64,000 nt of DNA from Eledone cirrhosa (Eukaryota): positions 13,578,001 through 13,642,000 of the forward strand of contig OZ024762.1 in the NCBI GenBank assembly GCA_964016885.1, given 5' to 3'. Positions 16,323-23,027 of the stretch are shown one piece after another. A model generated the notes under the pieces. The model did no database searches, had not been told where the DNA came from, and saw only the letters and a list, made by a program, of their open reading frames with translations. The translations under genes were made by a program, and so were the position numbers. How positions within the stretch are numbered: the first letter of the stretch is position 1; each line of letters begins with the position of its first letter.

Positions 16323-16561
16323 TATATATGTATATAATATATATTATATAAATATAAGTATGTACACGTACATACATATATGTATACCGACGTACAGTAG
16401 TATGTATATATATATATACATACATGCACACATATATATATGCACGTATGGATTCACCGAACATTTATTATAATGCTCGGTGTGTTTGTAAACAAACATC
16501 CCGTATTAAGCCGTAGTGTCTAGCAACCACCGTTGCTCGTTTGTTCAACACTGACAAAGGA

Positions 16562-16604
16562 ACGCTGTACTAGTTTCAAGCTTGTTAGCTATCGTCAGCA
16601 ACGT
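16562..16604 (-). ncRNA. Type I hammerhead ribozyme, first of 6 minus-strand copies in the left arm (repeating +422 bp to 18672-18714)
   Basis: Exact reverse complement of the 19208-19250 motif. Confidence 0.85.
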
Positions 16605-19207
16605 ATACCTTCCTGCCAGATTGTTGAACGTATATACTTACCTTATGCATATTAACGGCTGAGTAGCCCAATATGCATATCGAGTGGGTTAATCGGCCGG
16701 GTGCACCGAAAACGATAAACGGAAAAAATGAAACGATATTTCATTTCCCACTCTTAGTACGGCTGTTACTTAAATATAAGTATGTACACGTACATACATA
16801 TATGTATACCGACGTACAGTAGTATGTATATATATATATACATACATGCACACATATATATATGCACGTATGGATTCACCGAACATTTATTATAATGCTC
16901 GGTGTGTTTGTAAACAAACATCCCGTATTAAGCCGTAGTGTCTAGCAACCACCGTTGCTCGTTTGTTCAACACTGACAAAGGAACGCTGTACTAGTTTCA
17001 AGCTTGTTAGCTATCGTCAGCAACGTATACCTTCCTGCCAGATTGTTGAACGTATATACTTACCTTATGCATATTAACGGCTGAGTAGCCCAATATGCAT
17101 ATCGAGTGGGTTAATCGGCCGGGTGCACCGAAAACGATAAACGGAAAAAATGAAACGATATTTCATTTCCCACTCTTAGTACGGCTGTTACTTAAATATA
17201 AGTATGTACACGTACATACATATATGTATACCGACGTACAGTAGTATGTATATATATATATACATACATGCACACATATATATATGCACGTATGGATTCA
17301 CCGAACATTTATTATAATGCTCGGTGTGTTTGTAAACAAACATCCCGTATTAAGCCGTAGTGTCTAGCAACCACCGTTGCTCGTTTGTTCAACACTGACA
17401 AAGGAACGCTGTACTAGTTTCAAGCTTGTTAGCTATCGTCAGCAACGTATACCTTCCTGCCAGATTGTTGAACGTATATACTTACCTTATGCATATTAAC
17501 GGCTGAGTAGCCCAATATGCATATCGAGTGGGTTAATCGGCCGGGTGCACCGAAAACGATAAACGGAAAAAATGAAACGATATTTCATTTCCCACTCTTA
17601 GTACGGCTGTTACTTAAATATAAGTATGTACACGTACATACATATATGTATACCGACGTACAGTAGTATGTATATATATATATACATACATGCACACATA
17701 TATATATGCACGTATGGATTCACCGAACATTTATTATAATGCTCGGTGTGTTTGTAAACAAACATCCCGTATTAAGCCGTAGTGTCTAGCAACCACCGTT
17801 GCTCGTTTGTTCAACACTGACAAAGGAACGCTGTACTAGTTTCAAGCTTGTTAGCTATCGTCAGCAACGTATACCTTCCTGCCAGATTGTTGAACGTATA
17901 TACTTACCTTATGCATATTAACGGCTGAGTAGCCCAATATGCATATCGAGTGGGTTAATCGGCCGGGTGCACCGAAAACGATAAACGGAAAAAATGAAAC
18001 GATATTTCATTTCCCACTCTTAGTACGGCTGTTACTTAAATATAAGTATGTACACGTACATACATATATGTATACCGACGTACAGTAGTATGTATATATA
18101 TATATACATACATGCACACATATATATATGCACGTATGGATTCACCGAACATTTATTATAATGCTCGGTGTGTTTGTAAACAAACATCCCGTATTAAGCC
18201 GTAGTGTCTAGCAACCACCGTTGCTCGTTTGTTCAACACTGACAAAGGAACGCTGTACTAGTTTCAAGCTTGTTAGCTATCGTCAGCAACGTATACCTTC
18301 CTGCCAGATTGTTGAACGTATATACTTACCTTATGCATATTAACGGCTGAGTAGCCCAATATGCATATCGAGTGGGTTAATCGGCCGGGTGCACCGAAAA
18401 CGATAAACGGAAAAAATGAAACGATATTTCATTTCCCACTCTTAGTACGGCTGTTACTTAAATATAAGTATGTACACGTACATACATATATGTATACCGA
18501 CGTACAGTAGTATGTATATATATATATACATACATGCACACATATATATATGCACGTATGGATTCACCGAACATTTATTATAATGCTCGGTGTGTTTGTA
18601 AACAAACATCCCGTATTAAGCCGTAGTGTCTAGCAACCACCGTTGCTCGTTTGTTCAACACTGACAAAGGAACGCTGTACTAGTTTCAAGCTTGTTAGCT
18701 ATCGTCAGCAACGTATACCTTCCTGCCAGATTGTTGAACGTATATACTTACCTTATGCATATTAACGGCTGAGTAGCCCAATATGCATATCGAGTGGGTT
18801 AATCGGCCGGGTGCACCGAAAACGATAAACGGAAAAAATGAAACGATATTTCATTTCCCACTCTTAGTACGGCTGTTACTTAAATATAAGTATGTACACG
18901 TACATACATATATGTATACCGACGTACAGTAGTATGTATATATATATATACATACATGCACACATATATATATGCACGTATGGATTCACCGAACATTTAT
19001 TATAATGCTCGGTGTGTTTGTAAACAAACATCCCGTATTAAGCCGTAGTGTCTAGCAACCACCGTTGCTCGTTTGTTCAACACTTTTTTCCGTTTATCGT
19101 TTTCGGTGCACCCGGCCGATTAACCCACTCGATATGCATATTGGGCTACTCAGCCGTTAATATGCATAAGGTAAGTATATACGTTCAACAATCTGGCAGG
19201 AAGGTAT

Positions 19208-19250: not shown

Positions 19251-22200
19251 TCCTTTGTCAGTGTTGAACAAACGAGCAACGGTGGTTGCTAGACACTACG
19301 GCTTAATACGGGATGTTTGTTTACAAACACACCGAGCATTATAATAAATGTTCGGTGAATCCATACGTGCATATATATATGTGTGCATGTATGTATATAT
19401 ATATATACATACTACTGTACGTCGGTATACATATATGTATGTACGTGTACATACTTATATTTAAGTAACAGCCGTACTAAGAGTGGGAAATGAAATATCG
19501 TTTCATTTTTTCCGTTTATCGTTTTCGGTGCACCCGGCCGATTAACCCACTCGATATGCATATTGGGCTACTCAGCCGTTAATATGCATAAGGTAAGTAT
19601 ATACGTTCAACAATCTGGCAGGAAGGTATACGTTGCTGACGATAGCTAACAAGCTTGAAACTAGTACAGCGTTCCTTTGTCAGTGTTGAACAAACGAGCA
19701 ACGGTGGTTGCTAGACACTACGGCTTAATACGGGATGTTTGTTTACAAACACACCGAGCATTATAATAAATGTTCGGTGAATCCATACGTGCATATATAT
19801 ATGTGTGCATGTATGTATATATATATATACATACTACTGTACGTCGGTATACATATATGTATGTACGTGTACATACTTATATTTAAGTAACAGCCGTACT
19901 AAGAGTGGGAAATGAAATATCGTTTCATTTTTTCCGTTTATCGTTTTCGGTGCACCCGGCCGATTAACCCACTCGATATGCATATTGGGCTACTCAGCCG
20001 TTAATATGCATAAGGTAAGTATATACGTTCAACAATCTGGCAGGAAGGTATACGTTGCTGACGATAGCTAACAAGCTTGAAACTAGTACAGCGTTCCTTT
20101 GTCAGTGTTGAACAAACGAGCAACGGTGGTTGCTAGACACTACGGCTTAATACGGGATGTTTGTTTACAAACACACCGAGCATTATAATAAATGTTCGGT
20201 GAATCCATACGTGCATATATATATGTGTGCATGTATGTATATATATATATACATACTACTGTACGTCGGTATACATATATGTATGTACGTGTACATACTT
20301 ATATTTAAGTAACAGCCGTACTAAGAGTGGGAAATGAAATATCGTTTCATTTTTTCCGTTTATCGTTTTCGGTGCACCCGGCCGATTAACCCACTCGATA
20401 TGCATATTGGGCTACTCAGCCGTTAATATGCATAAGGTAAGTATATACGTTCAACAATCTGGCAGGAAGGTATACGTTGCTGACGATAGCTAACAAGCTT
20501 GAAACTAGTACAGCGTTCCTTTGTCAGTGTTGAACAAACGAGCAACGGTGGTTGCTAGACACTACGGCTTAATACGGGATGTTTGTTTACAAACACACCG
20601 AGCATTATAATAAATGTTCGGTGAATCCATACGTGCATATATATATGTGTGCATGTATGTATATATATATATACATACTACTGTACGTCGGTATACATAT
20701 ATGTATGTACGTGTACATACTTATATTTAAGTAACAGCCGTACTAAGAGTGGGAAATGAAATATCGTTTCATTTTTTCCGTTTATCGTTTTCGGTGCACC
20801 CGGCCGATTAACCCACTCGATATGCATATTGGGCTACTCAGCCGTTAATATGCATAAGGTAAGTATATACGTTCAACAATCTGGCAGGAAGGTATACGTT
20901 GCTGACGATAGCTAACAAGCTTGAAACTAGTACAGCGTTCCTTTGTCAGTGTTGAACAAACGAGCAACGGTGGTTGCTAGACACTACGGCTTAATACGGG
21001 ATGTTTGTTTACAAACACACCGAGCATTATAATAAATGTTCGGTGAATCCATACGTGCATATATATATGTGTGCATGTATGTATATATATATATACATAC
21101 TACTGTACGTCGGTATACATATATGTATGTACGTGTACATACTTATATTTAAGTAACAGCCGTACTAAGAGTGGGAAATGAAATATCGTTTCATTTTTTC
21201 CGTTTATCGTTTTCGGTGCACCCGGCCGATTAACCCACTCGATATGCATATTGGGCTACTCAGCCGTTAATATGCATAAGGTAAGTATATACGTTCAACA
21301 ATCTGGCAGGAAGGTATACGTTGCTGACGATAGCTAACAAGCTTGAAACTAGTACAGCGTTCCTTTGTCAGTGTTGAACAAACGAGCAACGGTGGTTGCT
21401 AGACACTACGGCTTAATACGGGATGTTTGTTTACAAACACACCGAGCATTATAATAAATGTTCGGTGAATCCATACGTGCATATATATATGTGTGCATGT
21501 ATGTATATATATATATACATACTACTGTACGTCGGTATACATATATGTATGTACGTGTACATACTTATATTTAAGTAACAGCCGTACTAAGAGTGGGAAA
21601 TGAAATATCGTTTCATTTTTTCCGTTTATCGTTTTCGGTGCACCCGGCCGATTAACCCACTCGATATGCATATTGGGCTACTCAGCCGTTAATATGCATA
21701 AGGTAAGTATATACGTTCAACAATCTGGCAGGAAGGTATACGTTGCTGACGATAGCTAACAAGCTTGAAACTAGTACAGCGTTCCTTTGTCAGTGTTGAA
21801 CAAACGAGCAACGGTGGTTGCTAGACACTACGGCTTAATACGGGATGTTTGTTTACAAACACACCGAGCATTATAATAAATGTTCGGTGAATCCATACGT
21901 GCATATATATATGTGTGCATGTATGTATATATATATATACATACTACTGTACGTCGGTATACATATATGTATGTACGTGTACATACTTATATTTAAGTAA
22001 CAGCCGTACTAAGAGTGGGAAATGAAATATCGTTTCATTTTTTCCGTTTATCGTTTTCGGTGCACCCGGCCGATTAACCCACTCGATATGCATATTGGGC
22101 TACTCAGCCGTTAATATGCATAAGGTAAGTATATACGTTCAACAATCTGGCAGGAAGGTATACGTTGCTGACGATAGCTAACAAGCTTGAAACTAGTACA

Positions 22201-23027
22201 GCGTTCCTTTGTCAGTGTTGAACAAACGAGCAACGGTGGTTGCTAGACACTACGGCTTAATACGGGATGTTTGTTTACAAACACACCGAGCATTATAATA
22301 AATGTTCGGTGAATCCATACGTGCATATATATATGTGTGCATGTATGTATATATATATATACATACTACTGTACGTCGGTATACATATATGTATGTACGT
22401 GTACATACTTATATTTAAGTAACAGCCGTACTAAGAGTGGGAAATGAAATATCGTTTCATTTTTTCCGTTTATCGTTTTCGGTGCACCCGGCCGATTAAC
22501 CCACTCGATATGCATATTGGGCTACTCAGCCGTTAATATGCATAAGGTAAGTATATACGTTCAACAATCTGGCAGGAAGGTATACGTTGCTGACGATAGC
22601 TAACAAGCTTGAAACTAGTACAGCGTTCCTTTGTCAGTGTTGAACAAACGAGCAACGGTGGTTGCTAGACACTACGGCTTAATACGGGATGTTTGTTTAC
22701 AAACACACCGAGCATTATAATAAATGTTCGGTGAATCCATACGTGCATATATATATGTGTGCATGTATGTATATATATATATACATACTACTGTACGTCG
22801 GTATACATATATGTATGTACGTGTACATACTTATATTTAAGTAACAGCCGTACTAAGAGTGGGAAATGAAATATCGTTTCATTTTTTCCGTATATATTAT
22901 ATATATATATATATATATTATATATATTATATATGTATATAATATATATTATATATATATATATATATATTATATATATTATATATATATATAATATATA
23001 TTATATATATATATATATTATATATAT

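Follow-up and report, generated by a model that had tools for sequence, protein, structure and literature searches.

A 64,000-nt stretch of the Eledone cirrhosa genome (GenBank assembly GCA_964016885.1, contig OZ024762.1, positions 13,578,001 to 13,642,000; hereafter the window) contains, at positions 16349–22891, two opposed arrays of one 422-bp unit, each full unit of which carries a predicted type I hammerhead ribozyme; we consider the array to be a probable retrozyme insertion made by a Penelope-like element (PLE). The two arms have their 3′ ends outward and are joined at 19084. The left arm (16349..19084, minus strand) comprises 6.48 identical units with 6 hammerheads and runs from an inner 5′ end at unit position 177 to an outer 3′ end at unit position 380, while the right arm (19084..22891, plus strand) comprises 9.02 identical units with 9 hammerheads and runs from an inner 5′ end at unit position 1 to an outer 3′ end at unit position 10, where position 1 corresponds to window position 19084 or 19506. 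We refer to the outer ends of the left and right arms as site A and site B; their modal positions in the family are 377 and 14, and the window's own ends lie 3–4 nt off these modes. The stretch from site A to site B forms a tail (22837..22891, plus strand; 59 nt in modal insertions) that is present at the right end and missing from the left, and a small hairpin whose loop contains site A lies at 19452..19467 of the first plus unit (unit 369–384). At the inner junction the arms share 1 base, and the place of this junction within the unit varies between loci. An earlier note on this sequence had described a single 15-copy tandem array, overlooking both the opposite orientation of the arms and their fixed ends. 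Its unit length of 422 bp and its count of 15 hammerheads, one complete type I motif per full unit, proved correct: all full and partial units (15.5 units) match the reference unit exactly, and we count 15 cores in 15 full passes, the plus strand having 9 of them and the minus strand 6.

The unit has a G+C content of 0.37–0.40 and its linear monomer folds with a z-score of −7.4; both of the further hairpins named in the earlier note pair in the fold. The longest stop-to-stop frame fully inside the plus-arm units is 53 aa, in agreement with the claim that the unit holds no open reading frame (ORF) of 60 aa or more, and frames of 61 and 70 aa span the junction or the flank. We saw no long terminal repeat (LTR) layout in the window array or the mapped young insertions, for which no tRNA-complement search was made. 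The array is flanked by an AT-only (TA)n target tract, of which the left part covers 15683..16348 (about 670 bp) and the right part 22892..23798 (about 900 bp). The sole G of each part (16330 and 22935) lies in the same context, and thus marks an imperfect target-site duplication of ~62–66 bp, indicating that both arms came from one event; the left copy lies at 16283..16348 and the right copy, in which one TA run is 4 nt shorter, at 22892..22953. In non-LTR retrozymes a target duplication, when there is one, exceeds 4 bp. The duplication at one other locus (L048) is similar to that of the window. Most of the 24 pairs of flanks consist solely of TA and carry no information on it, and other loci cap the duplication at 14–30 nt; these caps led us to reject the idea, suggested by the window, that the duplication equals the tail in length.

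The predicted hammerhead and its conservation

The first plus-strand hammerhead occupies 19208..19250, with its core at 19214, and the innermost hammerhead of the left arm occupies 18672..18714 on the minus strand; both repeat every 422 bp, the latter leftwards. The motif consists of a 6-bp helix I (ACGUUG/CAGCGU), the core CUGACGA...GAAA, a U-U apposition followed by a 4-bp helix II with a 4-nt loop, and a palindromic helix III of 2 bp, with a GUA triplet and a predicted cut after A19244 (unit position 161); the helix I, core, triplet and cut position are all as the earlier note had them. These helix lengths and the palindrome match the canonical metazoan type I hammerhead as outlined in the accessible part of PMC4209133 (helix I 6 bp, helix II 4 bp, helix III 1–2 bp with a small palindromic loop). 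A long extension of stem I (19183..19269, plus strand) adds 18 further pairs around the hammerhead and leaves an unpaired U at 19251, position 1.7. An unpaired U1.7 occurs in 13 of 14 aligned rows and loop II (AACA or AAUA) ends in A; a contact between loops 1 and 2, formed by unpaired U1.7 and the last A of loop II, is reported in the available text of PMC11875169, where it concerns GNRA loops. None of 5000 dinucleotide shuffles of the unit matched the motif descriptor. In the circular fold of the unit, pair probabilities are 0.45–0.94 for helix I, 0.90–1.0 for helix II and 0 for helix III, the last as expected of a dimer-type motif in a monomer fold, and forcing the hammerhead costs 1.4 kcal/mol. 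Matches of the unit to Rfam microRNA families were discarded, as they fall on a TA-rich hairpin and all lie far below gathering scores.

Exact matches to a 35-nt core pattern, in which two positions are free, number 23,602 in the genome (12,150 + 11,452), against 0 for the reversed control. Among 263 copies in the fetched loci there are 51 distinct versions of a 105-nt hammerhead region, 14 of which, chosen to span the subfamilies, were aligned for covariation. The helix I pair 128:164 is U-G in 6 rows, A-U in 4 and G-U in 3, and 92.3% of cells pair compared with 28–44% in slid controls; recurrent changes within the core region sit at N7 and loop II. This helix I covariation across subfamilies is supportive of selection on a ribozyme and not proof of it, because the 14 rows are related and one pair holds most of the signal.

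Fixed ends shared with Penelope-like elements

Of 256 candidates scored in a genome search with the unit, 40 gave a total of at least 246 matches, many of them 100% identical and spread over at least nine other contigs; the family is dispersed and looks very young. We fetched 27 matching places which, with the window and two extra insertions found inside them, allowed 30 young insertions to be mapped: 22 are two-armed with both outer ends visible, 5 are one-armed and 3 were left out because of an N gap, an end outside the stretch and a duplicated fragment, respectively. Of the 22 two-armed insertions, 21 combine an end at site A (377–380) with an end at site B (10–14), the two sites being 59 nt apart; the single exception (L042) has two B ends. 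If the two sites were chosen independently with equal chance, the probability of 21 or more such insertions would be, by our own arithmetic, 23/2^22. Genome-wide, the junction string of site A with TA occurs 1,652 times and that of site B with TA 3,573 times, and reversed controls give 0. Arm lengths range from 0.16 to 16.2 units, and the inner junctions are scattered over the unit and have 0–4 bases in common or a short fill-in. We rejected fold-back of a single cDNA, as the longer arm is not consistently of one type. Three single-armed insertions (L039, L034 and L047) have 5′ ends at TA-containing points of the unit (373, 160 and 326, respectively) that run into (TA)n, which suggests closure by annealing to the target tract.

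The insertions are dispersed, with arms of 0.2–16 units and fixed ends, unlike the long single-orientation arrays, grown in place, of a classical satellite. We weighed whether the layout could be an artefact of assembly or library preparation (fold-back chimeras or a collapsed repeat), or else a DNA-level element (Helitron-like or satellite) with an incidental hammerhead. The identity of all 15.5 units, the low complexity of the flanks, copy numbers that come from the assembly alone and a motif that Rfam does not score would all fit such an origin, yet at 21 of 22 loci, whose flanks differ, the two ends show the same fixed difference; within a locus the arms are unequal in length and, in some cases, in haplotype; the insertion in the window is bordered by a target duplication; and PLEs with reverse transcriptase (RT) genes share the layout. 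We regard this explanation as extremely unlikely. Another route would be a PLE-type insertion of one or two units followed by growth in place through unequal crossover or slippage, as proposed in the part of the vertebrate survey 10.64898/2026.07.22.740005 available to us. A sample not biased by age is given by the first 20 site-B places on one contig (C1; 83–100% identity), in 9 of which the partner arm ends at A. In favour of growth in place, the older copies in this sample mostly have fewer than two units per arm, and blocks of shared variants at two loci (L049 and L047) fit local duplication. However, the longest arrays consist of units that are also present unchanged on other contigs and hence were long when young, the older and more diverged insertions are shorter rather than longer, and both arms are multimeric in most young loci, making growth in place very unlikely. 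An older relative within the window (32430–33040), 74% identical to the unit and with a longer unit, also has opposed arms ending at sites A and B; it retains an intact hammerhead at 32690, in which pair 128:164 is G-U, and a short duplicated flank.

The insertions of PLEs have a comparable anatomy. In the available portion of PMC8557442 they are described as having an inverted 5′-truncated copy and a tail of 30–40 bp that frequently marks just one of the ends, and as favouring (TA)n in those clades whose linker is of the CX2-5CxxC type. The accessible text of PMC11167929 reports that the Anolis PLE protein Poseidon nicks and extends both strands, starting at two internal positions of the RNA between which the tail lies. 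We searched the Eledone genome for GIY-YIG candidates, scoring 150 of 10,596 (further PLE families may therefore exist) and fetching 45, and found three families, P1, P2 and P3, that encode an RT, a CX2-5CxxC linker and a GIY-YIG domain. They are 46–57% identical to each other, and each has many intact copies with frames of 775–784 aa; the ORFs of P2 and P3 show 3–12 base differences in 2,200. Going by the linker and the (TA)n target, we call these families Neptune-type. Among two-armed insertions in (TA)n whose ends are both visible, a short end is combined with a long one in 8 of 8 for P2, 8 of 8 for P3 and 5 of 6 for P1. What distinguishes the element from an ordinary further retrozyme is this insertion record, with one start site per strand, common to the retrozyme and three young PLE families. 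The unit itself contains no RT or GIY-YIG ORF and so is not an autonomous PLE.

Start-to-start distances are 61 for the unit, 54–55 for P2, 66 for P1 and 39 for P3, so that P2 and P1 come closest to the unit; this would disfavour P3 as the helper only if the protein sets the distance. The P2 hammerhead has the same build as that of the unit (U-U and a 4-nt palindrome), and our first guess at the helper is P2. Choosing a helper by sequence homology gave no candidate among the three families. By eye, the 3′ regions of P1 (L111, L112, L116) and P3 (L125, L129) contain a hammerhead-shaped motif, missed by the descriptor, with a CCGG palindrome and an altered core in which U3 and A8 replace C3 and G8 and, in P3, GCAA also replaces GAAA. 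One locus (L041:3980-5664) connects a lone arm of 3.3 units, which ends at site A, with the long end of a P1 fragment that itself has two arms; a few TA bases and a short fold-back lie between them. This is either an insertion into the TA flank of P1 or a template-switch chimera, and the latter would tie the unit to P1.

Proposed template and mechanism of insertion

We consider it likely that the element is a young non-autonomous non-LTR retrozyme moved by a Neptune-type PLE that primes on both target strands at two internal sites. The arrays would first be transcribed, and the hammerhead would cut the transcript after unit position 161, a reaction probably most efficient in a dimer formed by way of the palindromic helix III, and the monomers would be ligated to 422-nt circles as in known retrozymes; that a self-cleaving, circularised 422-nt RNA is made, as the earlier note proposed, we likewise infer from the sequence. 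A PLE protein with RT and GIY-YIG domains would then nick both strands of a (TA)n tract with variable stagger, in keeping with the observed TA targets and duplications. Each nick would prime RT at a different fixed site, A (~377) or B (~14), 59 nt apart, using a TA match of 3–5 nt. Each RT would run for 0.2–16 units, past the ribozyme site without trace and most simply by rolling round a circle, a template that we favour somewhat over others. Finally the two cDNAs would be joined at their scattered 5′-side ends by microhomology or short fill-ins, or a lone arm would be closed on the TA tract.

Which RNA is copied can be judged in part from where the arms stop. Among 87 inner-end positions, hand-collected from the mapped young insertions and the site-B loci, 2 lie within 5 nt of the ribozyme cut compared with 2.3 expected, and no unit varies at 161/162, so linear cut monomers were not the template; the remaining candidates are a closed circle and a multimer that stays uncleaved. 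On the same count we rejected run-off at the ribozyme site, which would stop arms at 162. A private +4 TA variant is present in 18 of 19 copies of one locus, spanning both arms. A closed RNA circle is somewhat the better-favoured template, because arms of 15–16 units occur despite scattered truncation and because this private variant extends over both arms. With the same PLE and the same twin priming at A and B, a donor array might instead be transcribed into a linear multimer that serves as template without being cleaved, the hammerhead being slow or dispensable and no circle being copied. In the accessible text of PMC11167929, hammerhead mutants had no effect on insertion by Anolis Poseidon and unprocessed RNA was the main substrate in vitro; moreover, the variant blocks in arms of L049 and L047 could derive from a donor array, and the lack of ends at the cut site fits a multimer as well as a circle. 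Yet with scattered 5′ truncation linear copying can only shorten the arms, whereas 15–16-unit arms occur, the private variant, which spans both arms in 18 of 19 copies, suggests a bottleneck of a single unit, and the core and helices are kept across subfamilies that are 74–100% alike, so that we think a linear multimer unlikely. In two PLE families of this genome, full-length copies stand in exact head-to-tail tandem (L149 and L129-L130), with periods of 4,202 bp (P2) and 4,734 bp (P3), so the choice between circle and multimer also arises for the candidate helpers.

Several observations weigh against a PLE-moved retrozyme that makes a ribozyme-cut circle. The 30 mapped insertions are the top-scoring matches and therefore a biased sample, and among the first 20 site-B places blastn shows no second arm at 10 and, at 1, a partner whose end coincides with neither site. 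The two arms of L049 differ in haplotype, with one variant filling 11 consecutive copies of one arm and then stopping, and L047 contains a 3-copy variant block; one circle does not account for every locus, and template switching, a mosaic donor or later local change is needed. Homology between the unit and the PLEs was also not found: blastn of the unit against the GIY-YIG loci matched only separate insertions of the unit, local alignment to the 3′ regions of P1 and P3 scored at shuffle level, and alignment to that of P2 gave a score of 28 in TA-rich sequence, which 6 of 200 shuffles equalled or exceeded. The pseudo-LTR (pLTR) homology that might link unit and helper was thus not found in the three families tested.

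With respect to the ribozyme, positions 10.1 and 11.1 are U-U, replacing the G10.1–C11.1 pair that closes helix II in the canonical metazoan motif of PMC4209133 (in its available part), and the Rfam hammerhead search proposed in the earlier note gave no match at the gathering score, nor any among 66 matches at E ≤ 10. The same U-U at the base of helix II is present in the axolotl HHR_Amex2, which, according to the accessible part of PMC7229834, cleaves 22% as a monomer and better as a dimer. In the available text of 10.64898/2026.07.22.740005, just one of 9 predicted dimers of Xenopus retrozymes underwent cleavage in vitro, so activity of the unit's predicted hammerhead is not a given, and the covariation test comprises 14 related rows and mostly one pair. 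No RNA run was listed as containing the stretch, and RNA evidence points neither way. Four contig sets aligned to the window were uninformative on expression, the putative RNA runs (X1 and X2) contributing only ~35-nt pieces with 4–7 differences. Two runs under other organism codes contain 0.67 and 0.57 of the stretch's words, one of them with a 320-bp piece without difference, and in a run under another organism code (X6) one 151-nt contig joins opposite unit strands at window 19634/19930, resembling an inner junction.

Within the reading of a PLE-moved retrozyme, we tentatively suggest, as a possibility we hold with less than even confidence, that each insertion is the fossil of twin rolling-circle RT: a dimer of the PLE protein on one ribozyme-made circle would offer the nicked strands a different site each, A to one and B to the other, both RTs would roll, and the parasite would be recognised by RNA shape, namely two UAU-bearing hairpin loops ~60 nt apart, rather than by pLTR homology. 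If this were true, the coupling of strand to site would be a general PLE mechanism for inverted copies, one-sided tails and tandem copies.

Relation to known elements and neighbouring repeats

By its sequence tests, those on RNA apart, the element is an animal non-LTR retrozyme, which supports the earlier note in this respect. Like the unit, the retrozymes of coral, mussel, axolotl and other vertebrates are, in the accessible parts of PMC7229834 and 10.64898/2026.07.22.740005, non-coding tandem units of 150–450 bp with one type I hammerhead each, GC < 50% and self-paired folds, in genomes where PLEs co-exist; the unit is, in addition, dispersed. These sources, as far as available, describe head-to-tail arrays only, whereas opposed arms, fixed ends, a tail and (TA)n targeting are features of the present element, and we found no report in the literature of this unit family or of two-armed, fixed-end retrozyme arrays. 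The words ‘tail’, ‘junction’ and ‘initiation’ are absent from 10.64898/2026.07.22.740005.

The mobility of animal retrozymes is still a hypothesis. The accessible text of PMC7229834 calls PLEs ‘a strong candidate’ for moving them, and that of 10.64898/2026.07.22.740005 adds phylogeny, states that life-cycle evidence is limited and favours local expansion. The latter links retrozymes to PLEs by pLTR similarity, whereas here the link is the insertion footprint; the suggested connection to Penelope-like RTs is now backed by fixed ends and by the same layout in three PLE families, and thousands of insertions bear this footprint. Neptune-type PLEs, in the available portions of PMC8557442 and PMC11167929, share with the element an inverted 5′-truncated copy at the 5′ end, a one-end tail, a (TA)n preference, variable duplications, two internal starts and a hammerhead near the 3′ end; unlike them, the unit is non-coding and 422 nt long, has arms of up to 16 units and has a tail of 59 nt rather than 30–40. 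In vitro, the accessible text of PMC11167929 gives no strand difference in start site, whereas each insertion here uses one site per strand, and this rule, which holds for the retrozyme and three PLE families, places a constraint on PLE integration beyond the resolution of the in vitro work. As the family looks very young and three candidate helper ORFs are intact, the published in vitro PLE assay is directly applicable with a 422-nt template. An RT able to copy one small RNA up to 16 times, almost without change, into a chosen repeat would also be relevant to tools for RNA-templated insertion.

The window is otherwise dominated by microsatellites, with no gene identified, and its two long open frames, 56296-57399 on the minus strand and 60486-61481 on the plus strand, have no Pfam match. 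A different small element (L112:52, minus strand, and the end of L138) has a type I hammerhead of the same build (U-U and a 4-nt palindrome) and long inverted repeats, lies beside (TA)n and is possibly a second retrozyme-like family. Other hammerhead-like motifs in the window, at 24140 (−), 26677 (+), 34642 (+), 38358 (+), 58599 (+) and 7378 (−), belong to other repeat families; some have a long helix II and AT palindromes, one is degenerate, and similar motifs recur in the fetched loci.

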